Source: a virus. Taken from it: a stretch of DNA of 52,035 bases. A program made the position numbers and the translations under genes. Shown in pieces: positions 1 to 52,035 of the stretch. The stretch spans positions 1 to 52,035 of the IMG/VR virus record IMGVR_UViG_3300037297_000161. One strand, 5' to 3'. Below the pieces are notes generated by a model, which was not told the DNA's origin, ran no database searches, and was given only the letters and a program-made list of their open reading frames with translations. Positions within the stretch are counted from its first letter, which is position 1. The number at the start of each line of letters is the position of its first letter.

Positions 1-180
1 AAGCGACAGAGCAAGCGACAGAGCAAGCGACAGAGCAAGCGACAGAGCAAGCGACAGAGCAAGCGACAGAGCAAGCGACAGAGCAAGCGACAGAGCAAGC
101 GACAGAGCAAGCGACAGAGCAAGCGACAGAGCAAGCGACAGAGCAAGCGACCGAGCAAGCGACCGAGCAAGCGACAGATA
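1..180. repeat. Tandem array of 12-bp unit AAGCGACAGAGC: 12 perfect units, 2 units AAGCGACCGAGC, 1 decayed unit AAGCGACAGATA
   Basis: Read directly; strict period of 12; same unit as the array at the 3' end of the window. Confidence 0.97.
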
Positions 181-266
181 GCGTGGATCAAGAACTTGAA
201 ACTCTGATCTCGGATCCAGAAGCAGACACGGCGTTGCAGCAGCTGATTGGAGTAGGCCCGGAGTAG
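3..266 (+). CDS. C-terminal part of a wrap-around ORF: (Ala-Thr-Glu-Gln)n repeat followed by ATDSVDQELETLISDPEADTALQQLIGVGPE
   Basis: Frame 3 reads GCG ACA GAG CAA through the whole array and stays open to TAG 264-266, 3 nt before the terS ATG. The two variant units (ACA->ACC) are synonymous in this frame. The other two frames stop at 179-181 and 205-207. Confidence 0.4.
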   Translation, partial: ATEQATEQATEQATEQATEQATEQATEQATEQATEQATEQATEQATEQATEQATEQATDSVDQELETLISDPEADTALQQLIGVGPE

Positions 267-269
267 TGT

Positions 270-842
270 ATGCCGAGAGAGTCATCAAATCTGAGTGTTG
301 TACCGGGCCCGACCGATCGCCTGAAGGGCGAGCCTCTCAAGGCCTACCAAGCTTTCTTGGTCTACCGTGACATGGCCCCTACGGAGCGCTCGGCACGAGC
401 CGTTGCGAAACGAACCGGGAAACGCTCCCATCGTCGTTTGGAACAGTGGTCGAGCAAATGGCACTGGGTCGAGCGCGCTGCTGCATGGGATGCGCTGGTT
501 GATCAAACCTATCAGCAGGCCCGGCTTGATGACGTTGTGCGTTTGAAGTCTCGGCACCTGGAGCAAATCGAGGCGTTGCGACAGGTCTGCGTGCGCGAAG
601 TAGCTGCCTACCTTAGGCGCTCGAAAGAGGCGGACGTGAACGCGGAAGGCAAGCGCGGGGAGCCGCTGTTGAAACCGAATGAGCTCTTGCGCCTGTCGGA
701 GCAAGTGATCACAATGGGTCGACTGATTCTGGGTCAGCCTACTGAGCATACAGAAACCACGGAGGCGTATGACCCGAGCAATCTTTCGGACGACGACCTC
801 CGTACACTCGTGCGATTGCGCGCGAAAGCAAGAGGTGAATGA
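270..842 (+). CDS. terS: terminase small subunit (candidate)
   Basis: 190 aa located upstream of terL (two small ORFs intervene). Has an N-terminal HTH-like segment LKAYQAFLVYRDMAPTERSARAVAKRTGKRSHRRLEQWSSKWHW of the kind seen in small terminases. ATGA overlap with the next ORF. Confidence 0.6.
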   Translation: MPRESSNLSVVPGPTDRLKGEPLKAYQAFLVYRDMAPTERSARAVAKRTGKRSHRRLEQWSSKWHWVERAAAWDALVDQTYQQARLDDVVRLKSRHLEQIEALRQVCVREVAAYLRRSKEADVNAEGKRGEPLLKPNELLRLSEQVITMGRLILGQPTEHTETTEAYDPSNLSDDDLRTLVRLRAKARGE

Positions 843-1069
843 TGAAGTACTCGGTGAAATCGAGAAGGCACCTGAACGAAGAGATAGAGGCCATCAGTCG
901 AGGAGTCTTCGGGCGCTCAGGCTTCTGTAAGGATCAAGGCCTCTGTGGGCAGTGCCCGTGGGGTATGTTTGGTCACTGTGGAAAAGTGGTGGACCATTTG
1001 TCCGAGGATGAGCGCATCATTGCCTGCGGGTTCATGATGGCAATTGCCGAACTCGGCACGGACTACTAG
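839..1069 (+). CDS. hypothetical Cys-rich protein
   Basis: 76 aa; ATGA coupling to terS; CGQCPWGMFGHC motif; no family recognised. Confidence 0.5.
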   Translation: MMKYSVKSRRHLNEEIEAISRGVFGRSGFCKDQGLCGQCPWGMFGHCGKVVDHLSEDERIIACGFMMAIAELGTDY

Positions 1070-1071
1070 CC

Positions 1072-1365
1072 ATGAACGTCAAGCTGAGCTGGGTCGAGCG
1101 TTTCATCAATTGGTTCCCTGGTCACACACGGCTTTACATTCGCGGCGCACAAGGAAAACCACGGCATGAGATCGAGAGGCTGTGGCGAGAACTCTTTGGA
1201 GACCTGAAGCCGTTCCTGGCGGAATTGCGCGATGAAGCGTATCGAGAAGGGTATGAGGCAGGATACGTTGCGGCCAAATGTCATATACCTCGCTCCGAGG
1301 AGAACATGCGACCACCTTCTCTCCCGGTGCCGGGTGACGACGTTTCACGGAAGGCACAATTCTGA
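1072..1365 (+). CDS. hypothetical protein
   Basis: 97 aa; tightly packed between neighbours on the same strand; no motif recognised. Confidence 0.5.
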   Translation: MNVKLSWVERFINWFPGHTRLYIRGAQGKPRHEIERLWRELFGDLKPFLAELRDEAYREGYEAGYVAAKCHIPRSEENMRPPSLPVPGDDVSRKAQF

Positions 1366-1371
1366 GGTCCC

Positions 1372-2886
1372 GTGTCTGAGATTATCCCAGAGCAGATCCT
1401 CGAAGAGCGAGAGCTTGGCTCCCGGCACTTGCGCGATTTCATCCCACTCGCCTGGCACCAGGTCGAGCCTGCTCGATCATTCATGGCCAATTGGCACATT
1501 GATGCCATTTGTGAGCACCTTGAGGCATGTACTCGACGTCAGATCCGAAGGCTCGTGATCAACATTCCGCCTGGTTCGAGTAAGTCAATCGTGACCTCCG
1601 TACTATGGCCGGCCTGGTCTTGGACGCACACACCGAGCGAGCGCTGGATTACCGCCAGCTATGCAGATCGTATTGCCAGGCGTGATGCTCTCAAAGCCCG
1701 ACACTTGCTTGAGGGACCATGGTTCCGAGAGCGCTGGGGCTATCTCTGGACGCCGGACGCGGCGCGATGGACGCAGGCCGAGTACCGTAACGATCAAGGC
1801 GGGCTGCGATTCGCGACTACTGTGTCGGGAGCTGTCTGCGGAGAACACGCAGGTATCCAGCTCGTGGATGATCCTATCAAGCCCCTTGATGCGCGCGGTG
1901 ATCGTGTCGACACCACTGCGATAACCACCTGCGCAGAGTGGTGGGATGAGACCATGCCGACGCGCATGATCGATCCAGCCACCGGGGTGCGGGTCATCAT
2001 CATGCAACGGTTGCACGACGCAGATCTTTCTGCGCATGTACTTGAGAGAGGCGATTATGTGCACCTGAATCTACCTATGCGGCAAGAGCGGCGCTGTGTG
2101 ATTACTGTGCCTCACATGTGTTCTCAGCCGGAGAACGATCGCGGCGAACCTCTTGATGCAACCCCTTTGGGGTTCAAGGATACGCGGGCTGAAGGGGAGC
2201 TGTTGTGGCCGGAGCGATTCTCGGAAGAGACGTGCTTGGAGCGAAAGAATGAGCTCGGCTCCCGGGCCCATGCGGCACAGGATCAGCAGCGGCCCATGCC
2301 GAGTGGTGGCGGAATCTTCAAGCGTGACTGGGTGCAGTACTACAAGATCAGGCCGAAGCCTCCCGGCGGCGGTGAGATGATTCAGAGTTGGGACTGCACT
2401 TTCAAAGGGCTTACCGATTCAGATTACGTGGTTGGTCAGGTGTGGTTGCGCCACGATGGGTGCTACTATCTGGTGGATCAAGTTCGTGATCAGATGAGTT
2501 TCTCGGCTACTTGCCGGGCGGTGTGGGCGATCTCGGCCCGCTGGCCTAAGGCCGTGCGCAAGTTGATCGAAGATAAGGCCAATGGCTCGGCTGTCATCGA
2601 TGTCATGCAGAAACGAGTACCGGGGCTATTGCCGGTCAATCCGGAAGGCGGCAAGATCGCTCGGGCCAATGCAGTTGAGGCGATCTGGGAGTCGGGCAAT
2701 GTCTTTGTGCCTGATCCAGAGATTGCGCCCTGGGTGCACGATTTCATAGAGGAGCTGCTCAGTTTCAATGGGGACCCGGGTCGTCGGGATGACCAAGTCG
2801 ATGCTATGACTCAAGCGCTGGTGCATCTGTACCGTCGGTCGGTGGGCACATTGGTTCAGGCCATGCAAAATTCGGGGTTGCGCTAG
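1372..2886 (+). CDS. terL: terminase large subunit
   Basis: 504 aa (GTG start after GAGG). Walker A-like PPGSSKS, Walker B-like IQLVDDP, C-terminal nuclease-type acidic motif DDQVDAMTQAL. Lies upstream of the portal (two small ORFs intervene). Confidence 0.9.
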   Translation: MSEIIPEQILEERELGSRHLRDFIPLAWHQVEPARSFMANWHIDAICEHLEACTRRQIRRLVINIPPGSSKSIVTSVLWPAWSWTHTPSERWITASYADRIARRDALKARHLLEGPWFRERWGYLWTPDAARWTQAEYRNDQGGLRFATTVSGAVCGEHAGIQLVDDPIKPLDARGDRVDTTAITTCAEWWDETMPTRMIDPATGVRVIIMQRLHDADLSAHVLERGDYVHLNLPMRQERRCVITVPHMCSQPENDRGEPLDATPLGFKDTRAEGELLWPERFSEETCLERKNELGSRAHAAQDQQRPMPSGGGIFKRDWVQYYKIRPKPPGGGEMIQSWDCTFKGLTDSDYVVGQVWLRHDGCYYLVDQVRDQMSFSATCRAVWAISARWPKAVRKLIEDKANGSAVIDVMQKRVPGLLPVNPEGGKIARANAVEAIWESGNVFVPDPEIAPWVHDFIEELLSFNGDPGRRDDQVDAMTQALVHLYRRSVGTLVQAMQNSGLR

Positions 2887-2924
2887 CTTGTAGCCCGTGG
2901 TAACATGATCGAAGGAGGTGAACC

Positions 2925-3197
2925 ATGAAAGTTGATGAAGCCCATCGCATTCAGCGACAAGCAATTGAGAGTGACAGACAGAGCGATTGCAGAGAGCTGC
3001 TCTGCTTGTGCCGAGACCAGGTACGCTCTGCAGCGCTGCAGGGTGAGAGCTCCTGCAACGTGAGAGCGCACATGCTACGCAATTTGACTATGGCTCGTGC
3101 TTGTGTGCAATGGCTTTTGCGGGACGGGTTTGACGCTTTTCTTTGGGAGCCATCCGCAGAGTGCCCGTATCGATCTATTGAGATCAGCTGGGCCTAG
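2925..3197 (+). CDS. hypothetical protein, member of the I-S/R-W-terminal small protein family
   Basis: 90 aa; strong SD GAAGGAGGTGA. C-terminus LRDGFDAFLWEPSAECPYRSIEISWA resembles three - strand ORFs (29427, 33542, 33825). Confidence 0.6.
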   Translation: MKVDEAHRIQRQAIESDRQSDCRELLCLCRDQVRSAALQGESSCNVRAHMLRNLTMARACVQWLLRDGFDAFLWEPSAECPYRSIEISWA

Positions 3198-3235
3198 TCT
3201 TGTGTTCCCGCTGGCATGGTCGAAAGAGGTGAACC

Positions 3236-3418
3236 ATGGAAAATGCTCTTGCTAAGGCGTTGAATGAAATGGCCGATCTGTACGAGTACGGTCATCTCGA
3301 AGCAGCCACGAACCCGGCTCTGTTTATCCGGGCAATCGCTGAAGACATCCGGCAAATGCGAGAGGCGTTAGGCATAGACGGTATGACCGAACTGCCGGAA
3401 CCTCGCGACGGCATCTAG
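3236..3418 (+). CDS. hypothetical protein
   Basis: 60 aa; SD AGAGGTGA; its 38-nt upstream spacer is a near copy of the spacer before 2925. Confidence 0.55.
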   Translation: MENALAKALNEMADLYEYGHLEAATNPALFIRAIAEDIRQMREALGIDGMTELPEPRDGI

Positions 3419-3466
3419 CCTTGCGCTGAGCTGGCTCCCGGGCTATGCTGGCCAGGTGAGGCGCAC

Positions 3467-5023
3467 ATGTCAATACGACACCGTCTAGATTCGTGGGTCA
3501 ATGTCATCACCGGCCTTGGGAGTGCACTGCGCGACAAGCGCGAGTTCACTCGCTTCCTGCATCGGGCCCGGCTGACCGACACCGAGTTGGACAACCTGTA
3601 CCACGAAGAAGACATTGCAGCGCGCATTGCCGAAGCGCTGCCGGCGGAGGCCTTGCGCCGAGGCTACTATCTCAGCTCGGAAAATGACGATCCTGGACTT
3701 TCCAGCGCCCTTGCCGAGTACGAGAAGCCGCTCCATTTCCGGCGCGCGTTGAAGCAGGCCGCGATTTGGGCACGCGTCTTTGGCGGTGCCGTGATCTACA
3801 TGGGCCTCGAAGATGGACAGCCCGAGGATCAACCGCTGGCGGTGGAGCGTCTGCAAGGCATTCGGTTTTTGCAGGTCTTGGACCGTCGGTACATCTACCC
3901 GATTCAAGAATACAGCGATCAGCAACGGTACGGGGAGCCGGAGTTGTACCAAATTCAGCGTTCAACGCGTCCGTCGTTGGGATCTCAAGTGTCGTTCCAG
4001 CCCGGTGCTGTCATCCACGAGTCCAGGCTCTTGCGATTGGATGGTGCGCTTACCTCGCAGAGCCGCATGGATGCACAGCAGGGCTGGAGCGATTCTGTCC
4101 TCGAGCGCGTGCACGAGGTGATTCGCGACTTTGGATCGTCATGGCAAGCGGTCGGCCATCTCATGCAGGATGCCGCGCAGGGCGTCTATTCAATGCGAGG
4201 CCTCCAGGATGCCGTAGCCAGCGGCGAGACCGATGCCATTCTGTCACGCATTCAGCTTATTGAGGTAAGTCGTAGCGTGGCACGGGCCATCCTCCTGGAT
4301 GCAGAGGAGAAGTTTGAGCGTCAGGCGTACAACTTTCAGGGCATCCCGGATATACTGAAACTACTCATGATTCGTGTGGCGGCTGCCGCGAACATGCCCG
4401 TGATCATACTCATGCGCCAAAGTCCGAGCGGGCTGAATGCGACCGGGGATGCCGATATTCGGCTGTGGTACGATCAGGTGCAAGAGTATCAGGCCGATCA
4501 TCTCCATGATGTGATCCAGCGATTTTACGAGCTCGTGTTCGCGGCTCAGGATTTTGCAGGTCAGGAGCCGGATGAGTGGGATGTCCTGTTTGGTCGCCTG
4601 TGGCAGATGACCGATCTCGAGCAGGCGCAGCTGGAAAAGACCGTGGCGGAGAAAGACAAGATCTTGATTGACAGCGGGATGGTGCTGCCAGAAGAGCTGG
4701 CAGTCAGCCGTTTCAAAGCACGTGGGTTTTCGCTGGATACTCAGATCGATCTCGATGTACGGGCAGAGATACTCGAGGCCGAGCTGAAGCTCGCCAAAGA
4801 GAACGCCGGGAAAGAGCCAGAGCCGCCGTCTATGCCGCCGCAGCCGGGGCAGGACCAAAACAAGCCCCAGATCGCTGACGGCCGTGTCGACAAGATTGAG
4901 CATCGCGGTAGTAAATGGGTGGTGCTCTCCGCCGACGGGTCGAAGGTACTCGGGACCCATGACACGAAAGCGGAAGCCGAAAAGCAGCTGCGCGCCATTG
5001 AGGCTGCCAAGCACAGGCGATGA
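3467..5023 (+). CDS. portal protein
   Basis: 518 aa. Size and position (after terL, before the Mu-F-like gene) fit a portal, and by eye it resembles DUF1073-type portals. C-terminal ~44 aa form a separate KWVV..G..LG.H.TK.EAE.QLRAI module. Confidence 0.8.
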   Translation: MSIRHRLDSWVNVITGLGSALRDKREFTRFLHRARLTDTELDNLYHEEDIAARIAEALPAEALRRGYYLSSENDDPGLSSALAEYEKPLHFRRALKQAAIWARVFGGAVIYMGLEDGQPEDQPLAVERLQGIRFLQVLDRRYIYPIQEYSDQQRYGEPELYQIQRSTRPSLGSQVSFQPGAVIHESRLLRLDGALTSQSRMDAQQGWSDSVLERVHEVIRDFGSSWQAVGHLMQDAAQGVYSMRGLQDAVASGETDAILSRIQLIEVSRSVARAILLDAEEKFERQAYNFQGIPDILKLLMIRVAAAANMPVIILMRQSPSGLNATGDADIRLWYDQVQEYQADHLHDVIQRFYELVFAAQDFAGQEPDEWDVLFGRLWQMTDLEQAQLEKTVAEKDKILIDSGMVLPEELAVSRFKARGFSLDTQIDLDVRAEILEAELKLAKENAGKEPEPPSMPPQPGQDQNKPQIADGRVDKIEHRGSKWVVLSADGSKVLGTHDTKAEAEKQLRAIEAAKHRR

Positions 5024-5901
5024 GCCTCCTACAAGAAATCGCTTACCGTCGCGCCATAGCCCAGCTTTCTGGCCGACGTCCTCGCAGATGGAAGATTCCG
5101 GCCCCGAGGCTAAGCTCGGCCCCAAGGCTGGCCTATCAATCAGAGCTCACGGGCCGGCTGGCCACGATCGATGATCTCCTTCACGAGCTGATCTTGCCCG
5201 AGCTCGGGGCGTGGCGACGTGCAGCTGGACTTGAACGAGGTGTTCGTCTTGACGCGGTGGCGGATGATATCACGATGACCTTTTCTAGGTTCCGTGTGCT
5301 CTATGCGAACGCGCACCCGGTCACAGAGACAGAACAGACCTTGGCCAAGGTGACCGAAGCGGCGGACAAAAGCACAGCAGCCGCGTTCCGACTTCAGACA
5401 CAAGCGGCCTTGGGTATTGAGCTCATCAGCCCGACGAGCGGGCGGGCGCAGTTGATCGAGCGCTTTATCCAAGAGAATCTTGATCTGGTTCAGACCTTGG
5501 ACGATCAACGGTTTCTCCAGTTGACCGATGTTGTTCGGCGCGGTGTTTCGCAGGGGATCCGTGTCGAGTCGTTGCGCGATGAAATCTTGCACAGCCTTGA
5601 CGTGAGCAAAAGTAAAGCGGCTTTTCTGGCTCGAGATCAAACACTCAAACTGCAAGGACAGCTCACGCAACAACGGCAAGAAAGCGCGGGCATTCCGGGC
5701 TACACGTGGTCGACGTCCCGGGATGAGTTGGTCCGGCCCATGCACCGAGCGCTTGATAAGACTCTGCAACTCTGGAGTGATCCCCCGGTGGTAGCCATCT
5801 CGAAAGGTGTCGAGCGCCATGCCCATCCGGGCGGAGACTACAGCTGTCGCTGTGTTGCCGTGCCTCGGTTCGAGGAATTGTTGGCCGCATTAGGCGTGTG
5901 A
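5020..5901 (+). CDS. head morphogenesis protein, Mu gpF / SPP1 gp7-like
   Basis: 293 aa; YTWSTSRDELVRPMHRALD ... HPGGDYSCRCVAVP signature; ATGA overlap with portal. Confidence 0.85.
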   Translation: MSLLQEIAYRRAIAQLSGRRPRRWKIPAPRLSSAPRLAYQSELTGRLATIDDLLHELILPELGAWRRAAGLERGVRLDAVADDITMTFSRFRVLYANAHPVTETEQTLAKVTEAADKSTAAAFRLQTQAALGIELISPTSGRAQLIERFIQENLDLVQTLDDQRFLQLTDVVRRGVSQGIRVESLRDEILHSLDVSKSKAAFLARDQTLKLQGQLTQQRQESAGIPGYTWSTSRDELVRPMHRALDKTLQLWSDPPVVAISKGVERHAHPGGDYSCRCVAVPRFEELLAALGV

Positions 5902-6099
5902 TTTTTTGCTTGACGGCCGCGCGCTGTTCTGCCATGCTTATTTGGTTATTACGGTCACATGAAACAAACGATTCGTTCTGCCAGGAGGGTTCAGATGAAG
6001 TACACCTGAGACTGGCCCGGCAGGTCCGGGTGCCCGCTTGGGGGCTAATACGGCCGATGGTACCAAGCCACTGCGCATCGGCATTTTCAGAGGTGACCT

Positions 6100-6714
6100 A
6101 TGGAACGTTTGGTTTGCTTGATCTTGCTGTTCTGCAGTGGCTGCTTCGCTCCGCCGCCGTTGTGCGAGGGGCACTGCTCTTACTTCGACAACGTCTACGA
6201 TGACAAGTACGAGGTGGACATTCGTGTTCGTGACGGCGTGCGCATTGATGCGCCGGCCGATTACGACACGGCGCGGTTTTCGGAGTTGATCGACGCCATC
6301 GACGCATGCCTGGCCGACATCGGGGAGCTCACCGAGCAAGAGGCGATCGACGGCATGTGCAAGTACCAACGGTACGAGTACGAGCCTATCCGCCGCGATT
6401 GCTTTGAAGTGAAAGTGACCTCGGCGTGGCACTGGTCGCAGGATCAGAGGTATCAGCTCCTTTTCCAGGAGGAAGCTGACTTCGCGTCGTGCGCGGCGAA
6501 GGGCTTTGTCGACGAGACTGCGGGTTGTTTCTGGCGCGCGACCATTCAGGACGGCTACCGGCTGATCGGTCCTCCGGAGATGGACCTCATCGGATTGAAG
6601 CTGCTCGAGGTGGAGACCTCGTGCATGGCTCCGTACAATACGCCAAGATTGGTGGCCTGTGCTGCAATTTCGGACGGGTTCATGCCACGTGATCCACACC
6701 GAGGTGAGTTATGA
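6100..6714 (+). CDS. exported protein, possible lipoprotein
   Basis: 204 aa; N-terminus MERLVCLILLFCSG|C (signal peptide with lipobox-like SGC); strong SD AGAGGTGA; preceded by ~200 nt of non-coding DNA. Confidence 0.65.
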   Translation: MERLVCLILLFCSGCFAPPPLCEGHCSYFDNVYDDKYEVDIRVRDGVRIDAPADYDTARFSELIDAIDACLADIGELTEQEAIDGMCKYQRYEYEPIRRDCFEVKVTSAWHWSQDQRYQLLFQEEADFASCAAKGFVDETAGCFWRATIQDGYRLIGPPEMDLIGLKLLEVETSCMAPYNTPRLVACAAISDGFMPRDPHRGEL

Positions 6715-6926
6715 CGTCCATCTTGGACGTGGCCCTAGCGGCGTGGGAAGGGGCGGCAGACTATGAGTCCGCTGTCAAGGTGCTCAAAAAGCGCGTTCGT
6801 GCTGATCCGGATTTGTACCGGCAGTTGACGGCGTCATCCGTGGATTCGCTGTGCCGAGAGTTGATCCGTTCCATTATCATGCCGGGCGTCGTGATCCGAA
6901 TCCTACAAGAGCGAGACCCCACCTAG
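6711..6926 (+). CDS. hypothetical protein
   Basis: 71 aa; ATGA overlap with upstream gene. Confidence 0.5.
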   Translation: MTSILDVALAAWEGAADYESAVKVLKKRVRADPDLYRQLTASSVDSLCRELIRSIIMPGVVIRILQERDPT

Positions 6927-6932
6927 ACAGAC

Positions 6933-8159
6933 TTGCCTGATGTCGACTATTCTGTCGGCATGAAACTCGTAGCCCGTTTTGACTTCGCGCGCCTGGGCAA
7001 GGTGCAACGCACGCCTCAAGGCTTCCTGCGCATCCCGGCGACCCTTGGCCGTAGTGGAGTGCAGCTCTATCGCCGGGCCGACGGTACGACTGTACGTGAG
7101 CTGCGCCCCGATGATGAGGTCTTCTCGGAAGCGCACATGGCGTCGTTGGCCGGCGCTCCAGTCACGCGAGATCACCCCCCCGGATTCGTAGAGCCAGGGA
7201 ATTTCAAATTGCTTGCAATTGGCTGGGTAGGTGAAAAGATTGAGCGCAAGGATAGTCTACTCTCGGGCACGGTGACAATCGCCGACAAGGCCGCCATCGA
7301 GGACGTGCTCGCGGGCAAGCTGAAAGATTTCAGTCTCGGATACAAGGTCCGCATTGACGCGACCGCGGGCGAGGATCCTCAGTACGGGCCGTACGATCAA
7401 GTCCAACGTGGACTCGTCGCCAACCATGCCGCTCTCGGGCCGGCTGGATGGGGGCGCGCGGGGCCATCCGTCGGACTCCGGCTTGACGCAGGCGATGCCA
7501 TCCTAGACCCCACCTTGACACCTGAACCGGATGTCGACGATAGTGGCAAAGATACTCGAACTCGCGCCGATGGCGTGAAAGGATCGACCATGAAGATCAA
7601 GATCAACGGCGTGACCTTCGACGTGGACGATAAGGTCGCTGAAGCGCTGGCTCAGGATCAAGCGCGTGCGGATGCGCAGACCAAGGAGATGGACACGCTC
7701 CAGGGTCGATTCGATGCGCAAAGGGAGAAGCTTGCGGAGACAGAGAAGAAGCTCGCTGAAGCGACCGACACCAAGCGTTTCGATGCGGCGGTCGAAGCAC
7801 GTGTTGCTTTGATCGACAAGGCGCGCAAGGTCCTCGGAGCGGACGCTGAGATCAAGGGCACCCCTCGTGCGATCATGGAGCAGGCGCTCAAGCACGACAA
7901 GAAAGATCCGCCGACTTTCGAGGGCAAGAGTGACGACTATGTCGAGTCTCGTTTCGACGCGCTGATCGAAGATTTGCCCATGAAGCAGGCGAACCAGAGC
8001 AAGCGCCAGGCTCGTCAAGATGCGCGCGATGCGCAGAATCCGGGCACGCAGGCCTCAGAAACAGATCGATACGATTCCAAGGCGGCACGGAAGCGCATGA
8101 TCGAGGAGAACCGCAAGGCAGCGACCCTCCCCTTGACCGTCGCCCGAGACCTCAAGTAA
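6933..8159 (+). CDS. prohead protease/scaffold-like protein (DUF2213-like N-terminal half, coiled-coil C-terminal half)
   Basis: 408 aa. N-terminal half (APVTRDHP, FSLGY, ANHAALG) looks like DUF2213 proteins that accompany DUF1073 portals. C-terminal half is charged and helical like scaffolds. TTG start in the track; alternative ATG at 6960. Confidence 0.6.
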   Translation: MPDVDYSVGMKLVARFDFARLGKVQRTPQGFLRIPATLGRSGVQLYRRADGTTVRELRPDDEVFSEAHMASLAGAPVTRDHPPGFVEPGNFKLLAIGWVGEKIERKDSLLSGTVTIADKAAIEDVLAGKLKDFSLGYKVRIDATAGEDPQYGPYDQVQRGLVANHAALGPAGWGRAGPSVGLRLDAGDAILDPTLTPEPDVDDSGKDTRTRADGVKGSTMKIKINGVTFDVDDKVAEALAQDQARADAQTKEMDTLQGRFDAQREKLAETEKKLAEATDTKRFDAAVEARVALIDKARKVLGADAEIKGTPRAIMEQALKHDKKDPPTFEGKSDDYVESRFDALIEDLPMKQANQSKRQARQDARDAQNPGTQASETDRYDSKAARKRMIEENRKAATLPLTVARDLK

Positions 8160-8184
8160 TCTGGTCGAAGAGCAGGAGACACCA

Positions 8185-9015
8185 ATGCAGACCACTCACA
8201 ATGAGCTTCCGGGCGTTGCCATCGCTGGTATGTTCGCGGACGTGGGCCCGAAGGACATCATCACCCGGCTCAACTCGGCGAAGCAGCTTTTCTCTGTGGT
8301 CGTGACCACGGAGTACAACGCCGAGATCTTCACGGTCACGATCGACGGCACGGGCTATGCCTACACGGCAGATGGCTCGGCAACCAAGGCTGAAATCGCG
8401 GCGGGTGTCAAGGCGCTCATCGATGCCGGCTCCGATGATGTGACCACCACGCTGTTCACCACGAGCGAGGTGAACGACTCGTTCTACATCGAAAACAACA
8501 GTTTCGATGATGAGATCGCGGTTTCTGTCACGAACCCCGCCCATGGGGTTTTGACTCTCGCTGAACTCATCGACCACGAGGATGCGATCCAGTTCGGTGC
8601 CGTGGTCGTCAACGATGATCGCCAGACCGCCGATGCTTTGGATGGCGCGCTGTTGCAGTGTCGCTTGCCGCGGCTGGCTACCGATTTTTCGAGCCGCCAT
8701 GTCCTCGGTGTGGCCATGGCTGATGTCAACAAGGTGACCCGGTTGACTGCCCCTTACGGCGGCTACAGCGCCGGTGAGACCGTCCCGGTCGTGCGCAAGG
8801 GCAGGATCTGGATGTCGGTCGAAGATGTCGCGAGTGTCGCTGAGGGAGGCCTGGTGTACGTGCGCCATGTCGCCAGCGGTACGGAGCAACTCGGGGCCAT
8901 TCGAGCGGCCGATGATGGGTCAGACACTGAGGTGTTGGACGCGCAACAGGCCAAATTCACCGGCCAAAAGATCACCGCCAGCTCGTTGGCCGTGGTCGAG
9001 TGGAATCTGCCGTAA
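8185..9015 (+). CDS. capsid decoration/cement-like structural protein with an inserted domain
   Basis: 276 aa, between the scaffold-like and capsid genes. Terminal segments (GMFAD; GETVPVVRKGRIWMSVED..GGLVYV) resemble DUF2190-type decoration proteins. The central insert is shared with the sheath. Confidence 0.4.
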   Translation: MQTTHNELPGVAIAGMFADVGPKDIITRLNSAKQLFSVVVTTEYNAEIFTVTIDGTGYAYTADGSATKAEIAAGVKALIDAGSDDVTTTLFTTSEVNDSFYIENNSFDDEIAVSVTNPAHGVLTLAELIDHEDAIQFGAVVVNDDRQTADALDGALLQCRLPRLATDFSSRHVLGVAMADVNKVTRLTAPYGGYSAGETVPVVRKGRIWMSVEDVASVAEGGLVYVRHVASGTEQLGAIRAADDGSDTEVLDAQQAKFTGQKITASSLAVVEWNLP

Positions 9016-9067
9016 TTGGCGTGGTCAGGACTGAAAGGAATCTCGTTCAGACGAGTTAGGAGCTATC

Positions 9068-10039
9068 ATGGATCCCCGACTTCTCGCGTTGCTCGACACC
9101 CTCGGCATGGATGAGATCCGCCAGGATGCAAAGTACACCGCGGCGCTGGAGCAGCAACTGGAGTACGTCAAGGCGCAGACCTATGACATCAAGTACCCCG
9201 AGCTGCGCGCGCGCCGCTTCATTCCGCTCGATACCAGTGTTCCGCCCGGGGCCGAGACCGTTGCGTACCAGCAATGGGACGAGTTCGGCATGGCAAAGAT
9301 CTTGTCGAACTACGCTGAGGATCTCCCGCTGGTCACTGCGTTGGCCGAGAAGTTTTTCCAGGGCATCGAAAGTCTGGGTCAAGCCTACGACTACTCGATC
9401 CAAGATCTCGCTCGCAGTGCGATGAGCGGATCTCAGCTCGAAACCCGGAAGGCGACTGCGGCCCGTAAGTTTATCGAGCGGCGGATCGATGACATTGCGG
9501 CCGTCGGCTATCCCGCAGCCAAAATGAAGGGATTCGTCAACCATCCGAACGTCGCGATTGCCTCGGCAACCTCGGATGGCACTAGTGCACGCTGGGTCGG
9601 TGGACGAACACTCCCGAAGGCCCCCGAGGACATCAAAAAGGACATGGCCGACAGCCAGACCACGATCTGGGTCGACACCAAGCAGACCTTCGAGCCGGAC
9701 ACGATCGTGCTCCCGCCGACGGAGTTCGCGCACATCGCAAACACGGATAACCGCGACAACTCGGATAAGTCGATCCTGAACTCGTTCATGGATCGGAATC
9801 TGTCCATCACCAATGTGGACTACTGGCACAAGCTGGCCGAGGCGGATGCGGCCGGCACCGGTCCGCGCATGGTGACCTACAAGCGCTCAAGCGAGGTTCT
9901 CGAGCTGGTCATTCCGCGTGAGTTTGAGCAGCTGCCGCCTCAGGCGCGCATGCTTTCTTTCGTGGTTCCGTGTCATGCGAGGTGCGGCGGCGTGGTTGTC
10001 CGGTATCCGGTCGCCATGCTGTACACGGACGGGATCTAA
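9068..10039 (+). CDS. major capsid protein (DUF2184-like)
   Basis: 323 aa; position, size and strong SD AGGAG fit; by eye it resembles the capsid family that co-occurs with DUF1073/Mu-F/DUF2213; followed by hairpins. Confidence 0.75.
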   Translation: MDPRLLALLDTLGMDEIRQDAKYTAALEQQLEYVKAQTYDIKYPELRARRFIPLDTSVPPGAETVAYQQWDEFGMAKILSNYAEDLPLVTALAEKFFQGIESLGQAYDYSIQDLARSAMSGSQLETRKATAARKFIERRIDDIAAVGYPAAKMKGFVNHPNVAIASATSDGTSARWVGGRTLPKAPEDIKKDMADSQTTIWVDTKQTFEPDTIVLPPTEFAHIANTDNRDNSDKSILNSFMDRNLSITNVDYWHKLAEADAAGTGPRMVTYKRSSEVLELVIPREFEQLPPQARMLSFVVPCHARCGGVVVRYPVAMLYTDGI

Positions 10040-10091
10040 GCCTAGGTTCCACCTCTGCCTAGGCGAGGCCGACAACGGGTGGTTGGCCAGG

Positions 10092-10119
10092 CCCGGCGAG
10101 TGCTACTTGCCTCGCCGGG
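10092..10119 (+). terminator. GC-rich hairpin downstream of the capsid gene (attenuator/terminator candidate)
   Basis: CCCGGCGAG-10 nt-CTCGCCGGG (9-bp stem) followed by TCATTATC. A second 7-bp hairpin (GCCTAGG-11-CCTAGGC) lies at 10040-10064. There is no clean U-run. Confidence 0.35.
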
Positions 10120-10144
10120 TCATTATCACCCGAGAGGTACTCTC

Positions 10145-10645
10145 ATGCCGAAAATTTTTGTATGTCAAGCCCGTGCACTTCACTCTGCGGGAGTGCGTCT
10201 TGTTCCTGGTAAGGCCGGGAACGACGTCACCCAAGAGCAACTCGGCCACATGGAGTCGGACGAACAGTTCAAGCTCTGGTGTCGGCTCGGTTGGGTGGCG
10301 ATTCGTCGGGACAGTGTCGCGGAACCTGGCGACCCGGCACGCGAGGCCGAGGTCGAGGCGAAGATCGCGGAAGTCATAAAGGAGCGCGCGGCTGTAGTAG
10401 CTGCCGCTGAGCCGGGGGATTCGGTTGCGGATGGGCCTGCGGACGCGGATCCCCAGGTGCCGAGGGAGAGTGCTCCTGCTCTGGGACCGGAGTCGCTCAA
10501 GAGTGAAAACGTGATCAAGGCGCGTGAAATGATCGCGGCTTGTGACGATCTGGACCTGCTCTTGTCCTGGTTCGAGAACGACACCAGGCAAACAGTCCAA
10601 GACGCAGTTGAAAAGCGGTTGAACAAGCTGCAGGCTCAGGAGTAG
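10145..10645 (+). CDS. hypothetical head-region protein
   Basis: Track ORF 10079..10645 trimmed to ATG 10145 behind GAGAGG; 166 aa with an acidic Ala/Pro-rich middle. Confidence 0.55.
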   Translation: MPKIFVCQARALHSAGVRLVPGKAGNDVTQEQLGHMESDEQFKLWCRLGWVAIRRDSVAEPGDPAREAEVEAKIAEVIKERAAVVAAAEPGDSVADGPADADPQVPRESAPALGPESLKSENVIKAREMIAACDDLDLLLSWFENDTRQTVQDAVEKRLNKLQAQE

Positions 10646-10648
10646 TCA

Positions 10649-10942
10649 GTGGCCGCGGACGCATCGACCTTGGTGGCGCGCTACCCGGAGTTTCAGCCTG
10701 CGCTGGATCAGTATCCGGACATGGTCGATGCGTGTCTCGCGCAGGCCGAGGTTCAAATCGACCGCACGGTGTATCGAGACAAAGCTGATGCCGCTGTGCA
10801 TGCGCTGGCCGCGCATTTGCTGGCGCTGTGCCCCCTAGGCGGCGAGCCTGCACGGCTTGAGCCGGAATCCATGAACACAATCTATTGGGGGCAATACAAA
10901 GCCCTGCGCCAGAGCCTCCGATGCGGGATGCAGGTGATTTGA
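10649..10942 (+). CDS. head-tail connector protein (DUF4054-like)
   Basis: 97 aa; N-terminal ARYPEFQP motif and size typical of DUF4054; position after the capsid gene. Confidence 0.55.
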   Translation: MAADASTLVARYPEFQPALDQYPDMVDACLAQAEVQIDRTVYRDKADAAVHALAAHLLALCPLGGEPARLEPESMNTIYWGQYKALRQSLRCGMQVI

Positions 10943-20410: not shown

Positions 20411-21442
20411 ATGGCACTGACTCGGACCACCACGCATGTTGCCGACGGGCAAGCGCAACTCATCTCGCAGTTCGTGCGCAAACCGAACTTCCGCGCACTG
20501 CTGGGCACTTACTTGCAACAGGTGCAGGAGCTGGAGGATGTTTTCTTCCAGTTACTTGGGATCCCGACGGCCATCGAGGCCCAGGAAGGGGCTCAGCTCG
20601 ACCTCATCGGCAAGATTGTCGGGCAAGAGCGAGACGGCCGCAGCGATACGGTATATCGACGCGGCATTTTAGCCCGACTTGCGATCAATCGCGCTTCAGG
20701 CCTCTACGACGAATTCCTTACGGTGCTTGCCTTAGTTGCGCCTGGTGAAATCTCAGAGATAGAGGAATTCTACCCGGCCGGGCTTGTCATCCGGTTGCTT
20801 GATGCATTTTCCGGTGATGGCCCGTACTCGGCGTTGCTGTTGGGCCAGGTACGAGTGGCAGGGGTTCACGGGACGCTAGAGTACTCAGCTGAGGCGGCCG
20901 AGGATTTGTTTGTATTCTCCGCCAGCGACTCCGAAGAATTATCTGAACAAGGGTTTGCCTCTGACGCGACATCTGGAGAGGCCATCACGAATGGGGACTT
21001 TTCGGCCTGGACAGCCGACGATCCAGATGATTGGACCGCATTCGAAACTTGGTCTGACGGCATCACAGAGGTCGGGTCTGGTGAAGGTCCGGCCGGGGCA
21101 GGTTCTGGCTCGGTGTGCATCAATCGAGGTGCGACCGCACCGTACGGCCTCTGTTACATCAGCCAAGCGGTCTCGGGCTTGGGGGCTGGCGCGTCATATG
21201 CGGTTCGTTTCACGATCAGTCGTCTGGTCGGATCGGATCTGCGTGTCCAGGATTCGCTCGGGCTTTTCAATCAAACCTTCAGCGCCGCGGGCACCTATCG
21301 AATTTTGTGCACGCCTAGTGCAGGTGCGTTGACGATCTATTTCGCGACCGTGAACACAACTACTCTGCATGAAATCACCATCGATTCCGTTTCCCTTGCA
21401 CCGACGACCGGTGGCGTGTTTGCCGCCGTAGAGGAGATGTGA
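20411..21442 (+). CDS. baseplate wedge/fibre-connector protein (gpI/DUF2612-like N-terminus) with C-terminal beta-sandwich
   Basis: 343 aa; position after J; C-terminal ITNGDFSAWTADDPDDWT segment resembles carbohydrate-binding jelly-rolls. Confidence 0.5.
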   Translation: MALTRTTTHVADGQAQLISQFVRKPNFRALLGTYLQQVQELEDVFFQLLGIPTAIEAQEGAQLDLIGKIVGQERDGRSDTVYRRGILARLAINRASGLYDEFLTVLALVAPGEISEIEEFYPAGLVIRLLDAFSGDGPYSALLLGQVRVAGVHGTLEYSAEAAEDLFVFSASDSEELSEQGFASDATSGEAITNGDFSAWTADDPDDWTAFETWSDGITEVGSGEGPAGAGSGSVCINRGATAPYGLCYISQAVSGLGAGASYAVRFTISRLVGSDLRVQDSLGLFNQTFSAAGTYRILCTPSAGALTIYFATVNTTTLHEITIDSVSLAPTTGGVFAAVEEM

Positions 21443-21444
21443 TC

Positions 21445-22503
21445 ATGACCTTGACGCCGATTCCGTACTGGGCAACTGATGTCGATCGCACTGTAGAGCC
21501 CAGCGCTGGCGAAAAAGCAACTGGTTGGCAGGCCGGCTATGCCCCGCCGGCCCGCAAAATGAATTGGATTTTGAATCAGTTGGCTGAGGCGATGCGCTCC
21601 CAACTGGTCCTCAATCTCGCAAATCTGAGCGCGCGAGACTCCGGAGGCGGCGCCACGAATACGTACTTTGGGCTGGCGCATGACGGCTCTGGGCTGTGGT
21701 GCGCAGTCGGGGCCAACGGAGAGATTCAGACGTCGCCTTGGGGGATTACTTGGACGGCGCGCACGGCCGCTGGGGGATATTCAAGCACGTTCAATGCGGC
21801 GGCCCATGATGGCTCTGGGCTGTGGTGCATCGTCGGCGCAAGCGGCGAGATCCAGACTTCACCGGACGGAAATACTTGGACAGCCCGGACCGCCGCAGGT
21901 GCCTATGCAGGTACCTTTCAAGGGATTGCACATGATGGATCCAGCCTCTGGTGCGCTGTGGGCTCGTCTGGCGAAATCCAGACGTCACCCGACGGAATTA
22001 CCTGGACAGCTCGAACAGCGGCGGGCGCCTATTCTGGAACGTTTTACGCCGTCGCACACAATGGAGGCGGCCTCTGGTGCGCGGTCGGATCTGGAGGCGA
22101 AATCCAAACCTCCCCGGATGGCATCACCTGGACGGCCCGCACTGCAGCCGGTGGTTATTCGGACGCCTTCAAATCGATCACCTATGGCGCTTCACAGTGG
22201 TGTATTGCAGGCCATGCGCATGCGCTGCAGACATCGCCTGACGGTATTACCTGGACAGCACAAACCACTGCCACTGGATTTCTGGGGGCGTCGGATGATT
22301 TCGAAAGCGTTGACTACGATGGCGCACAAGTCTGGTGCATTGTCGGATCGTCCAAAGAGCTCCAAGTCTCAGTAGACGATTGTGTGACATGGACAAGATA
22401 CCCGCTGGATGCATCGACGGGGCTGAATGAGATCCGCTACGGAATCAATAGTTGGATAGTGACGGGCGCGAGTGGCGAGCTGTTTCAGTCTTTGCGGATC
22501 TGA
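21445..22503 (+). CDS. tail fibre / receptor-binding protein with seven-blade Asp-box (BNR-like) beta-propeller
   Basis: Start moved to ATG 21445 (8 nt after GAGGAG). N-terminal ~70 aa resemble fibre attachment regions. These are followed by seven ~42-aa repeats, each with W..VG..GEIQTSPDGITWT (S-x-D-x-G-x-T-W). Confidence 0.65.
   Translation: MTLTPIPYWATDVDRTVEPSAGEKATGWQAGYAPPARKMNWILNQLAEAMRSQLVLNLANLSARDSGGGATNTYFGLAHDGSGLWCAVGANGEIQTSPWGITWTARTAAGGYSSTFNAAAHDGSGLWCIVGASGEIQTSPDGNTWTARTAAGAYAGTFQGIAHDGSSLWCAVGSSGEIQTSPDGITWTARTAAGAYSGTFYAVAHNGGGLWCAVGSGGEIQTSPDGITWTARTAAGGYSDAFKSITYGASQWCIAGHAHALQTSPDGITWTAQTTATGFLGASDDFESVDYDGAQVWCIVGSSKELQVSVDDCVTWTRYPLDASTGLNEIRYGINSWIVTGASGELFQSLRI
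21667..22500 (+). repeat. Seven in-frame ~126-bp coding repeats (propeller blades)
   Basis: Blade starts at about aa 77, 118, 160, 202, 243, 288 and 329 of the track ORF. Confidence 0.85.
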
Positions 22504-27234: not shown

Positions 27235-29289
27235 ATGCGTTATCTTGTCTTTGTTCTTGCCTGCTTGCTGACTTCTACGGCCCTTGCCGAGACCCAAACC
27301 GTCAAACAGGCCCGGCTGCGTAATGCGCTGCGGGCGACCGGGATGGCCGGCACATACGCGAATCAGTGCCTGGCCGGATTCGCGAATGTTTACTACTACG
27401 ACACCTATGTCGAGCTCGCGGCCGCGACCCCGACCGAGGGGGTGTTCGGGTGGGCCATCGACACCGATGCCATGTATTACTACACCGGCTCAGCCTGGAC
27501 GGCGCTGCTCAGTGCCTCGAGCGCGGGGCTGCTGGGCACCAACGGGGGCACCATTGGCAATGAAACCAACAACGTATGGACCGTAGCTGAGAACGGCGAA
27601 GATTTCACTGTCACCTTCGCGGCCAATTCTGCCACGTTCGCGAGCGGAACCGGCTCCTTGTTCACATTCACGCCAGCAACCACATTCTCTGGAGACGTGA
27701 GCTTCGGCGGAGGCGCAGGGGCTTTGAATCTGTCAGGATCCGGGGACTCAACGATGCTCGTCGCCGACGCGGACGCGACCGCTTGGTGTGCCGGCGCCAC
27801 CGGAGCCCTGGATCTGGTTTGCTTGGATACGACCGACGCAAGTCCGGCACTCGATATCAAAGGAGTGACAACTCAGGTCGCCTTGCATGTGGATGTTGGG
27901 ACAGCGCAATTTGACGAAGGCTTCACCAGCACCGGGGATATCGTTCTCAATGGCGGGGCGGGCGGACTCAACATGTCGGGATCCGGTGACTCGACGATGC
28001 TCGTGGCCGATGCGGACGCAACTGCCTGGTGTGCGGGTGCAACCGGTGCACTGGATCTGATCTGCTTGGATACGACCGACGCAAGTCCGGCGCTGGACAT
28101 CAAAGGCGTAACGACTCAAGTCGCCTTGCACGTGGATGTTGGCACCGTGCTGATTGATGAAGATCTCGCCGTGGGCGGCGGGGCCGGGGCTCTCAATGTA
28201 AGCTCAAGTGGAGATGCGTCCATGCTTGTAGCCGATGCGGACTCGACCGCGTTCTGTACAGGCGCCACCGGAGCCCTGGATATCTTATGCATCGACAGCA
28301 CAGATGCCAGCCCGGGGGTGGTTGTCAAAGGGCTCGCCAATCAGACATCGTTTGCTGTCTCGGCAGGAGACGCCACGTTCGCCGAGGATGTGACAATCGG
28401 CGACGGCACGGCGGCTACTGATTTCAGTCTGACTTTCAACGGCGAGGACAGTGATGGCGTTTGCACGTGGATGGAGGACGAAGCTCTGTTCGACTTCGAC
28501 CACGGCCTGCAAATCGACGGCTCAAGCACGATCGGTGATGGCACCGCGGCCACTGACTTCAGTCTGACTTTCAACGGCGAGGACAGTGATGGCGTTTGTA
28601 CGTGGATGGAGGACGAAGCTCTGTTCGACTTCGACCACGGCCTGCAAGTCGATGGCTCAAGCACAATCGGTGATGGCACCGCGGCCGCTGACTACACTCT
28701 GACTTTCAATGGAGAGGACAACGACGGTACGATTACGTACATGGAGGATGAGGACCGCTTCGACTTTGACAACGATGTCGTGGTGGGCAATGATCTGACC
28801 GTCACGGCAGATGTCACGGTCGCGACCTTGGATGCCGCGGTCCCTGCTATAGCGCTGCACGAGATTCGGTTCTGCGGCAATGGGCCAAACGGTAACACGA
28901 CTGTCTACAATGGTCCCATCCTCGAGACCGACATGGACACAGACATGACCTTCGGGGCGGCGGGCTGTGATGCGAACGACAGCACGACAGAAACAAATGT
29001 CGACGATGCGCCGATCCCATTCGCGTACAAGCCAGTGGCAATGGCGTGTCTTCTCGCCGCCGGGGGAACGGACGATACAGTGACGTTCCAGTTGCGCGAG
29101 GACCAATCGGACGTGACGGGCCTCACGTGCAACGTGGTCATGGACGGGGCGAATGCACAGCAGTGCGTCGTGAGGCTAGCGGCCCCCGAAACGGTGGCCG
29201 CCGGAAGTCTGATTGACGTGTCAATGGTCGCTACCGACGACAACCTCAGCGCCATTGATGCCGAGTGCCGGGTCTTCGTGACGTTCTGA
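27235..29289 (+). CDS. exported fibre/adhesin-like repeat protein
   Basis: 684 aa; textbook signal peptide MRYLVFVLACLLTSTALA|E; three ~80-aa repeats followed by three 45-aa repeats; last gene of the + strand arm. Confidence 0.7.
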   Translation: MRYLVFVLACLLTSTALAETQTVKQARLRNALRATGMAGTYANQCLAGFANVYYYDTYVELAAATPTEGVFGWAIDTDAMYYYTGSAWTALLSASSAGLLGTNGGTIGNETNNVWTVAENGEDFTVTFAANSATFASGTGSLFTFTPATTFSGDVSFGGGAGALNLSGSGDSTMLVADADATAWCAGATGALDLVCLDTTDASPALDIKGVTTQVALHVDVGTAQFDEGFTSTGDIVLNGGAGGLNMSGSGDSTMLVADADATAWCAGATGALDLICLDTTDASPALDIKGVTTQVALHVDVGTVLIDEDLAVGGGAGALNVSSSGDASMLVADADSTAFCTGATGALDILCIDSTDASPGVVVKGLANQTSFAVSAGDATFAEDVTIGDGTAATDFSLTFNGEDSDGVCTWMEDEALFDFDHGLQIDGSSTIGDGTAATDFSLTFNGEDSDGVCTWMEDEALFDFDHGLQVDGSSTIGDGTAAADYTLTFNGEDNDGTITYMEDEDRFDFDNDVVVGNDLTVTADVTVATLDAAVPAIALHEIRFCGNGPNGNTTVYNGPILETDMDTDMTFGAAGCDANDSTTETNVDDAPIPFAYKPVAMACLLAAGGTDDTVTFQLREDQSDVTGLTCNVVMDGANAQQCVVRLAAPETVAAGSLIDVSMVATDDNLSAIDAECRVFVTF
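27706..28398 (+). repeat. Three in-frame ~240-bp coding repeats (GGGAGALNLSGSGDSTMLVADADATAWCAGATGALDL..)
   Basis: Copies 1 and 2 are almost identical at the protein level but differ at many synonymous third positions; copy 3 is more diverged. Confidence 0.9.
28393..28797 (+). repeat. Three in-frame 135-bp coding repeats (TIGDGTAATDFSLTFNGEDSDGVCTWMEDEALFDFDHGLQ.DGSS)
   Basis: Copies 1 and 2 are nearly identical at the DNA level; copy 3 is diverged. Confidence 0.9.
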
Positions 29290-49551: not shown

Positions 49552-49579
49552 TTAGCATTAAATTTAAAAATAATATAAT
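49552..49579 (+). promoter_or_regulatory. sigma70-like promoter TTAGCA-16 nt-TATAAT
   Basis: Perfect -10 hexamer in the AT-rich core; would give a ~260-nt leader before the 49846 gene. Confidence 0.4.
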
Positions 49580-49797
49580 AGGTACGTGATCATATGCTAT
49601 GGGAGAGAGGGAGCAAGAGGGGGAGAGACGGTCGACCTGCTGCGAACGGGCGAAATTGGCAATAGTTCAATGTTTCTGCCAGACTATGGTGCTAACCTAT
49701 ATGCTAATCGCTGAGAAAAATTAAGACAGTTTAATGTTTTCGCGGTGTTACAATGAAAAGCTAGATGCGAGGTGGCGGCAGGCCAGAGCCAAAATGC

Positions 49798-49825
49798 TTG
49801 ACATTGCCTTGTCGTCTGGTACCAT
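49798..49825 (+). promoter_or_regulatory. sigma70-like promoter TTGACA-16 nt-TACCAT for the 49846 gene
   Basis: Same geometry as the leftward promoter; followed by AGGAGGTGATCT-ATG. Confidence 0.5.
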
Positions 49826-51538: not shown

Positions 51539-51796
51539 ATGACCCAATACTCTCCGATCGGCCAACGGATTCACGCCGCAGAGCACCACATCGCCCATCT
51601 GCATCGACAGCAACAGATCGAGGCCGAGTATTTGGCCTTGGCTCTACCGCCGACGAAATACGAGACGCTTACGATCGAGACGTGGAGATTACCTATCACT
51701 GGTACTGCCCCGAATTCTGTGGTGTCAGTATGTCACCCCCAGGACCTGATTGACCTCCTGTGGCGACGCGCCGTATCGGCGATCAAGTTTTGGTGA
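51539..51796 (+). CDS. hypothetical protein
   Basis: 85 aa; preferred over the overlapping 51529..51753 frame on amino-acid composition. Confidence 0.45.
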   Translation: MTQYSPIGQRIHAAEHHIAHLHRQQQIEAEYLALALPPTKYETLTIETWRLPITGTAPNSVVSVCHPQDLIDLLWRRAVSAIKFW

Positions 51797-51883
51797 CGTG
51801 TGAGAGGGTGCGACCGTAAGGGTCAATCGATCCGGTGATCAAAACCTCTTGACAGCCGGATTGATCTTTGGCAGGCTGAGCAA

Positions 51884-52035
51884 GTGAACACGAAGCGCCC
51901 GAACCTGAAAGAACGAGCGAAGCAAGCGACAGAGCAAGCGACAGAGCAAGCGACAGAGCAAGCGACAGAGCAAGCGACAGAGCAAGCGACAGAGCAAGCG
52001 ACAGAGCAAGCGACAGAGCAAGCGACAGAGCAAGC
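51884..52035 (+). CDS. N-terminal part of the wrap-around (ATEQ)n ORF (VNTKRPNLKERAKQ + ATEQ repeats)
   Basis: Frame open from 51839; the only plausible start is GTG 51884 with a weak SD (GCTGAG); same reading frame as 3..266 when the 112-nt terminal overlap is collapsed. Confidence 0.35.
   Translation, partial: MNTKRPNLKERAKQATEQATEQATEQATEQATEQATEQATEQATEQATEQ
51924..52035. repeat. Tandem array, 9 perfect 12-bp units plus 4 nt; identical to nt 1-112 (direct terminal repeat of the contig)
   Basis: Read directly. Confidence 0.97.

Follow-up and report, generated by a model that had tools for sequence, protein, structure and literature searches.

Of the phenomena described so far, the one closest to the array reported here is found in Borg extrachromosomal elements, as perfect tandem repeats that lie in frame within genes and encode aaTR proteins. 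Borg repeats are arranged head-to-tail, are perfect or carry single SNPs, consist of A-enriched and T-poor units, and have partial units at their flanks (PMC9879509). Genic Borg repeats have units that are a multiple of three nucleotides long, which leaves the ORF intact (PMC9879509). Among perfect repeats, all of the genic ones have such a unit length, as against 14–38% of the intergenic ones (PMC9879509). The repeats are lineage-specific and evidently recent, and they frequently terminate contigs (PMC9879509). The aaTR proteins include proteins of fewer than 100 aa that are 50–96% repeat, which the authors flag as possibly de novo or mispredicted, and 62.8% of aaTR proteins contain at least one IDR, disorder being common and not obligatory (PMC9879509).

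We analysed a viral sequence of 52,035 nt, the whole of IMG/VR record IMGVR_UViG_3300037297_000161 (the window). Both the start and the end of the window lie inside one 12-bp tandem array with the unit AAGCGACAGAGC, as found by TRF and by direct reading. In one frame every unit reads Ala-Thr-Glu-Gln (ATEQ). Like the Borg repeats, the array is nearly perfect in DNA, has a unit length divisible by three, is A-rich and T-free, has partial units at its flanks, and ends contigs. It differs from them in belonging to a ~52-kb tailed phage and not to an archaeal Borg, and in being a single short-unit perfect array where Borgs carry dozens. In addition, the core of its product is predicted to be helical, so that the disorder trait of Borg aaTR proteins is not shared, a prediction of single-sequence AlphaFold2 that is weak evidence. 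Our preferred reading, held with moderate confidence, is that the array is a recently expanded in-frame VNTR within a small lineage-specific gene upstream of terS.

Repeated elements by or within terS are also known as recognition sites of TerS, namely the R sites of lambda cosB, the pacL and pacR boxes of SPP1, and the pac hexamers of P1. These known sites are few (3–7), imperfect, spaced and non-tandem, and in lambda and SPP1 the cos and pac sites lie just upstream of terS. The array resembles them in being made of direct repeats immediately upstream of the small terminase gene, but it differs in having at least 15 perfect, contiguous, T-free units, in its coding-like frame, and in its absence from relatives. 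The literature was searched for pac sites made of tandem repeats 5′ of terS, with no relevant result.

This location is one argument for the array being a VNTR that does not code and forms part of the packaging-operon leader, either as neutral slippage DNA or as a DNA element such as an array of TerS sites, across which the ORF would be fortuitous. We regard such an origin as unlikely, though it is the main rival of the coding reading. Relatives with a homologous terS are without the array, hence it is no conserved packaging feature, and at least 15 identical units indicate recent expansion over maintained binding sites.

The array and the two ends of the window

The left-hand part of the array occupies positions 1–178 (+ strand; 14.8 copies, 98% matches by TRF and pattern search), and the right-hand part occupies positions 51921–52035, up to the window end (+ strand; 9.6 copies, 100% matches). 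The unit has the composition A5 G4 C3 T0, and the array is 59% G+C. Matches to the unit number 23 in the 52-kb window, where 0.5 are expected, and all of them fall within the array; the confinement of the unit to this one place in the genome also speaks against a non-coding element. The sole variants are A-to-C changes at 152 and 164, in two neighbouring units, and these identical adjacent variants are most simply explained by one mutation that was then duplicated. At its flanks the array has partial units, AGCAA ahead of the first complete copy and the degenerate GCGACAGATAGC (ATDS) behind the last. The array thus has the properties by which the tandem repeats of Borgs are defined (PMC9879509): units placed head-to-tail, perfect or with single SNPs, over at least 50 nt and in at least 3 copies.

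Several other DNA- or RNA-level roles were considered for the array. Iteron-type replication origins consist of a few spaced, imperfect repeats beside an AT-rich stretch and the gene of a replication initiator. They do not agree with an array that is contiguous, perfect, T-free and G+C-rich and that has no adjacent AT-rich region; it also counts against such an origin that the array follows small + strand genes and heads the packaging operon on that strand. A regulatory RNA structure was rejected, the unit being T-free and the fold energy of the array RNA (−35.7 kcal/mol) being no different from that of shuffles (−32.6 ± 5.2). A local GATC cluster of the P1-pac type was likewise rejected, GATC being frequent genome-wide and its local density unexceptional. 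The window contains 543 GATC sites (10.4 per kb), ~2.8 times a back-of-envelope expectation from base composition (~193).

The two window ends can be overlapped exactly by 4, 16, and so on up to 112 nt (4 + 12k nt), and up to 112 nt of positions 1–178 may be the same DNA as positions 51924–52035. The copy number of at least 15 is a lower bound, neither of the assemblies that contain the array measuring its length. The second of these is an independent assembly of the same phage from SRR12668987 (Logan), which is 100% identical over 10.6 kb and is broken at the array on both sides. One Logan contig (L083) corresponds to window positions 181–10842 at 100% identity and includes the tail sequence that follows the array. 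Another (L084) ends at window position 51950, 30 nt into the array, as expected of a k=31 graph. L083 would be expected to begin ~60 nt inside the array but begins at 181, 3 nt past it, so that SRR12668987 may contain a second haplotype at the 3′ array boundary or a gap in coverage. The array is thus real, and short reads cannot be assembled across it; both the assembly breaks and the presence of the array at the two window ends follow from its tandem structure.

The adjacency of the two window ends is supported by synteny. A conserved 85-aa gene lies at 51539–51796 on the + strand, with tblastn matches in the relatives L001 (40% identity, 3e-10) and L003 (39% identity, 3e-8), and in both relatives the homologue and terS share a strand, with terS ~2 kb downstream.

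These data bear on the possibility that the array is real while its length, the phase of its junction or the adjacency of the ends is false, such that there would be no ORF of this kind. An artefact of this type could account for the array at both contig ends, for a literal join that is out of frame (see below), for the many exact overlap lengths, and for a second assembly that breaks here, with a right-hand contig that begins at 181, as might result from heterogeneity or from low coverage. Against it, both ends share the unit and each exact overlap gives the same frame, synteny in the relatives puts the 85-aa gene on the strand of terS and upstream of it, and both flanks are matched at 100% identity by the two Logan contigs. 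We judge such an artefact to be very improbable. More generally, where a contig is circularised on a tandem repeat the junction is arbitrary, so that the gene calls at such ends, the genome length and any completeness flag of the 'direct terminal repeat' type need confirmation by long reads; here, the literal join breaks the frame.

Reading frame and codon usage across the junction

The initial annotation had described a wrap-around ORF that starts at GTG 51884, translates the array as (ATEQ)n, continues through a 31-codon tail, and ends at TAG 264–266, ahead of the terS ATG at 270. The array and each of these elements are at the positions claimed, and the other two + strand frames, as had been stated, stop soon past the array, at 178–180 and 205–207. 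Taken literally, the wrap-around does not hold: the joined ends, ...GAGCAAGC + AAGCGACAG..., carry a surplus of 4 nt, and the frame is lost. The naive circular join reads (ATEQ)9-A-(SDRA)n and ends at TAG 178–180. Every exact overlap (4 + 12k nt) restores the ATEQ frame from GTG 51884 to TAG 264–266, with a product of 101 aa for the 112-nt overlap and of 137 aa for the 4-nt overlap. The ORF is therefore continuous only if the window ends are overlapped by 4 + 12k nt, and treating them as a terminal overlap is reasonable.

The ATEQ frame opens at 51839, behind a TGA at 51836–51838, and the first start codon within it is GTG 51884. The putative start and 14 N-terminal non-repeat codons, encoding the basic segment VNTKRPNLKERAKQ, occupy positions 51884–51925 (+ strand). 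On the other side of the array, positions 171–266 (+ strand) translate into the degenerate last unit (ATDS) and the acidic 31-codon tail, ATDSVDQELETLISDPEADTALQQLIGVGPE, which is closed by TAG 264–266.

The small terminase gene, terS, lies at 270–842 on the + strand (phrog_6299, 2e-24), with terL downstream of it (1372–2886) and the portal gene downstream of terL (3467–5023). The array ends 91 nt ahead of the terS ATG. The ATEQ ORF stops 3 nt before this ATG, and the GGAG site of terS is located within the last codons of the tail. The terS homologues P0002–P0007 begin at a position equivalent to ATG 270, and a 190-aa TerS from ATG 270, which has the GGAG site, is favoured by these homologues and the Logan gene call. 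A JGI-derived terS protein has just 134 aa (from TTG 438).

The ATEQ ORF and terS share one frame and are parted by TAG-TGT alone (GAG TAG TGT ATG, 264–272), so read-through of the TAG would fuse the repeat protein to TerS. An in-phase junction would also put the 85-aa gene in the same frame, with two TGA stops in between. Recoding or suppression of TAG was rejected, with no tRNA genes present and TAG ending 19 of the 56 long ORFs.

The array is open in all six frames, and openness within it therefore carries no information; an ORF across it is easily obtained, as a non-coding origin of the array would have it. The synonymy of the two variant units had been put forward as what selection on a peptide repeat would leave. 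The variants are indeed synonymous in the ATEQ frame, but this is not specific to that frame, the A-to-C change being synonymous in three of the six (ATEQ, SDRA through AGA to CGA, and minus-strand ACSV), and the two variants count as a single event. The argument for selection is accordingly nearly empty.

To score coding potential, we built codon tables from 21 confident window genes (9,740 codons) and scored 31-codon windows by log2 of in-frame over off-frame usage; the test of the ORF rests on its 45 non-repeat codons. In the ATEQ frame the tail scores 9.83 bits. Windows of real genes in the correct frame score 8.4 ± 5.3 bits, and 39% of them reach 9.83, while random open frames of the same composition (first-order Markov) score −4.1 ± 4.9 bits, with 0.14–0.25% reaching that value. 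Open windows in the four wrong frames of real genes have means of −5.2 to −10.0 (0–1% reach 9.83), and those in the direct antisense frame have a mean of 1.5 (4.8% reach 9.83). The likelihood ratio of the tail against random open frames is ~40 (38–43 by kernel density). The scores of the tail in the six frames (9.8, −21.7, −30.4, 3.7, −21.2 and −3.4) form a pattern that resembles real genes. Of the six frames, the ATEQ frame also gives the highest score for the 14 codons of the N-terminus, at 3.96 bits, and for the repeat unit, at ~+1.7 bits per unit. No other frame combines a start codon with extensions to either side of the array, and the unit length of 12 nt is divisible by three.

Coding is thus favoured by the codon usage of the flanks, by the unit length, by the start codon together with both extensions, and by the ATEQ arrays present in other viral ORFs (see below). 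A translated (ATEQ)n protein packed against terS, as first proposed, is the best-supported reading, on grounds other than those originally given, and we consider translation of the whole ATEQ ORF reasonably probable. For a fortuitous ORF over non-coding DNA, it can be said that a 31-codon open frame occurs in 35–40% of random sequences of the same composition. Against it, the flanks are coding-like in exactly the frame compatible with the array, to which the likelihood ratio of the tail bears witness, and the unit length is divisible by three, which is true of 14–38% of intergenic Borg perfect repeats (PMC9879509).

The start signal had been called weak, and it is: GTG 51884 is preceded by the weak Shine-Dalgarno-like sequence ggcaggctGAGcaaGTG, unlike many window genes, which have GGAG or GAGG. 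This weakness counts in favour of a non-coding array. An imperfect 17-nt inverted repeat, ATCGATCCGGTGATCAA / TTGACAGCCGGATTGAT, identified by a repeat search, forms a predicted stable hairpin at 51826–51865 (+ strand), in the 87-nt gap before GTG 51884. The RNA of 51797–51900 folds with −39.4 kcal/mol (z = −3.2). No T-run follows the hairpin, which is therefore not a typical terminator, and a structured hairpin just 5′ of the ORF is a further point for a leader that is not translated. A promoter scan yielded no passing site near the ORF, which is a point against coding; the nearest promoter-like sites on the + strand are at 49552 and 49798, and the + strand block seems to begin near 49552–49825.

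Translation could also be confined to the tail, as a 27-aa micro-ORF from the in-frame GTG 183–185, with the array as an untranslated leader. The tail holds the strongest coding signal, and with a start at GTG 183 the stop codon and the coupling to terS would be unchanged. No Shine-Dalgarno-like sequence is found ahead of GTG 183 (gacagatagcGTG), the N-terminal flank and the unit likewise score best in the ATEQ frame, and a 27-aa product is a priori less likely than a continuous ORF that is open anyway. We therefore hold such a micro-ORF to be improbable.

On the minus strand, an ORF that reads the array as (LALS)n has an ATG, extends without a stop from past position 300 across the array to ~51790, and is formally the longer one. 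Each of its three parts has a negative codon score (−3.4, −1.3 per 4 units, and −6.3). The ORF runs antisense to the start of terS, the neighbouring genes are all on the + strand, and the A-to-C variant would change L to R. On its negative codon scores the (LALS)n ORF was rejected, and we give next to no credence to its being a real gene.

Relatives of the locus and ATEQ runs in other proteins

The nearest relatives of the phage are L001 and L002, whose terS products are 50% identical to that of the window, and L003 and L026, whose terL products are 69% and 63% identical. A tandem array upstream of terS is absent from L001, L002, L003 and L026, as well as from more distant loci. Specifically, neither an array upstream of terS nor a homologue of the tail was present in loci L001–L082, retrieved via terS and terL, or in the prophage-like MAG loci L088–L103. 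Patterns of terS found no close relative in IMG/VR or in JGI metagenome contigs, and the array DNA, searched as a 24-mer and a 36-mer, was absent from the same collections.

Relatives with 33–50% identical terS carry other sequences in the slot before terS, and the slot immediately 5′ of terS appears to be a variable region. In the nearest relatives it is taken up by small Cys-rich ORFs that are unrelated to the ATEQ ORF. In L001, an unrelated Cys-rich ORF of 73 aa, not called by the gene caller, lies directly before terS (9740–9958). In L003, the ORF directly before terS is an unrelated Cys-rich one of 173 aa (1901–2422). With respect to the rapid evolution of Borg-type repeats, the array is absent from all relatives found, and the start of L083 at 181 hints at heterogeneity. 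On these comparisons, the ORF and its array are lineage-specific and recent; that relatives are without either of them also weighs against coding.

A different short repeat was seen elsewhere in L003, where nine copies of the 7-bp AACCAGA (905–964) lie at the 5′ end of a 229-aa ORF (902–1591), which we took as ParB-like from reading its sequence. This tract may be slippage-prone, and its 7-nt unit is not frame-preserving.

A database search with the 31-aa tail, which had been proposed as a check on the ORF, gave 0 matches by phmmer against 1.84 billion representative proteins. A word-indexed search of 5.8 billion proteins returned repeat-to-repeat matches only and nothing specific, tblastn against isolated phages found no match to the product, and Pfam and NCBIfam gave only sub-threshold low-complexity noise (e.g. 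FlgT_N and TolA). A match to phrog_23568 (6e-8), a family with no assigned function, spans residues 37–74 only, that is, the repeat, and was treated as a low-complexity match. By exact look-up, the partial products of window positions 3–263, 51884–52033 and 183–263 are absent from a collection of 15 billion proteins. One related gene call was found, a 27-aa fragment at a contig edge in Logan. The orphan status of the product and the absence of its three partial forms from the protein collection are what a fortuitous ORF in a non-coding VNTR would also give.

The initial annotation knew of no described phage protein family built from ATEQ repeats. The peptide repeat itself is not new, runs of (A/V)TEQ being a recurrent low-complexity module in many unrelated proteins. 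A 549-aa phage ORF (L087) opens with MADTQ(ATEQ)4, and a 675-aa giant-virus ORF (L086) likewise begins with an exact ATEQ run. The units of these ORFs use other codons (GCA ACC GAG CAR; ACC GAR CAA GCR), and their unit-to-unit differences are synonymous. The two ORFs show that genuine genes can contain such 12-bp arrays and have them translated in the ATEQ frame. Runs of the (A/V/P)TEQ type are also carried by N-terminal extensions of ribosomal protein S17 (P0012 and P0016) and by other proteins with no assigned function, and the N-terminal (P/A)xEQ runs of P0008 and P0020 match PF04886, the PT disordered repeat of Pfam (for P0020 as a precomputed result). Such occurrences also show the ATEQ motif to be a common low-complexity module and no new family.

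The phage ORF is set apart from these proteins by its proportions. The other (A/V/P)TEQ proteins have 4–10 units that are imperfect in DNA and joined to a larger globular protein, whereas the phage ORF encodes a tiny orphan of which 55–67% is repeat, with units that are nearly perfect in DNA. One further viral contig, L085 (IMGVR_UViG_3300000970_000018), ends in a 12-bp array with the unit ACACGGCAGGCC (3013–3139; 10 copies, 87% identity). The L085 array encodes (QATx)n at the C-terminal end of a P0011-related ORF, and its fourth residue varies non-synonymously among R, W, D and E.

Predicted product and possible relation to the terminase

In the reading that we prefer, the gene would lie between the conserved 85-aa gene and terS, heading a + strand late block of packaging and structural genes, and would run from GTG 51884 through at least ~15 units to TAG 264–266. 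The last codons of the ORF carry the ribosome-binding site of terS, and translation of terS is therefore probably coupled to that of the ATEQ ORF. The array most likely arose by replication slippage or unequal recombination, and would have grown from a local seed of the form ...ERAKQ-ATEQ-ATDS...

The predicted product consists of a basic N-terminus, the (ATEQ)n core and an acidic tail, with a pI of ~4 and a net charge of −18 to −27. AlphaFold2, run on the single sequence of an 87-aa fragment, places a helix at residues 2–69 with a mean pLDDT of 91, and of 90–96 in the repeat. The product is thus predicted to form one long α-helix with a Glu at every fourth residue, with the proviso that high-confidence single-sequence AlphaFold2 helices on A/E/Q-rich repeats are weak evidence. 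By inspection of the sequence, no signal peptide or membrane segment is evident in the product.

With a 12-nt unit, gain or loss of units alters the length of the helix and never the frame. The frame being kept at any copy number, the gene would encode a length-variable protein and would not act as an on/off (phase-variation) switch. The (ATEQ)n product is an ordinary kind of repeat-made protein, and our guess at its role is that it serves as an accessory or a decoy, being acidic, helical, dispensable and produced alongside the terminase.

A more specific role, in which the VNTR-encoded (ATEQ)n helix would be a functional, length-tunable partner of the terminase and the number of repeats would tune DNA packaging, seems to us a long shot. 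Such a partner might be a separate, strongly acidic protein, similar to a DNA mimic, whose translation is coupled to that of terS. Alternatively, rare read-through of the TAG might add an N-terminal arm of variable length to a TerS isoform, which is conceivable given that the ATEQ ORF and terS are in the same frame with only TAG-TGT between them. In a third form, the same 12-bp units might double as binding sites for TerS.

If translated, the ORF would be a clean case of a phage gene made mostly of a recent in-frame tandem repeat. It would then possibly represent de novo protein material made by slippage and co-expressed with the packaging motor, and it would extend the Borg phenomenon to an ordinary tailed phage.

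Two longer tandem repeats are present elsewhere in the window. A 126-nt unit is repeated in ~2 copies at 75% identity at 21805–22139, within a + strand ORF (21439–22503), and a 135-nt unit is repeated in 2.4 copies at 92% identity at 28393–28720, within another + strand ORF (27235–29289). In both of these large ORFs the repeats probably correspond to domains that recur within a tail or fibre protein.
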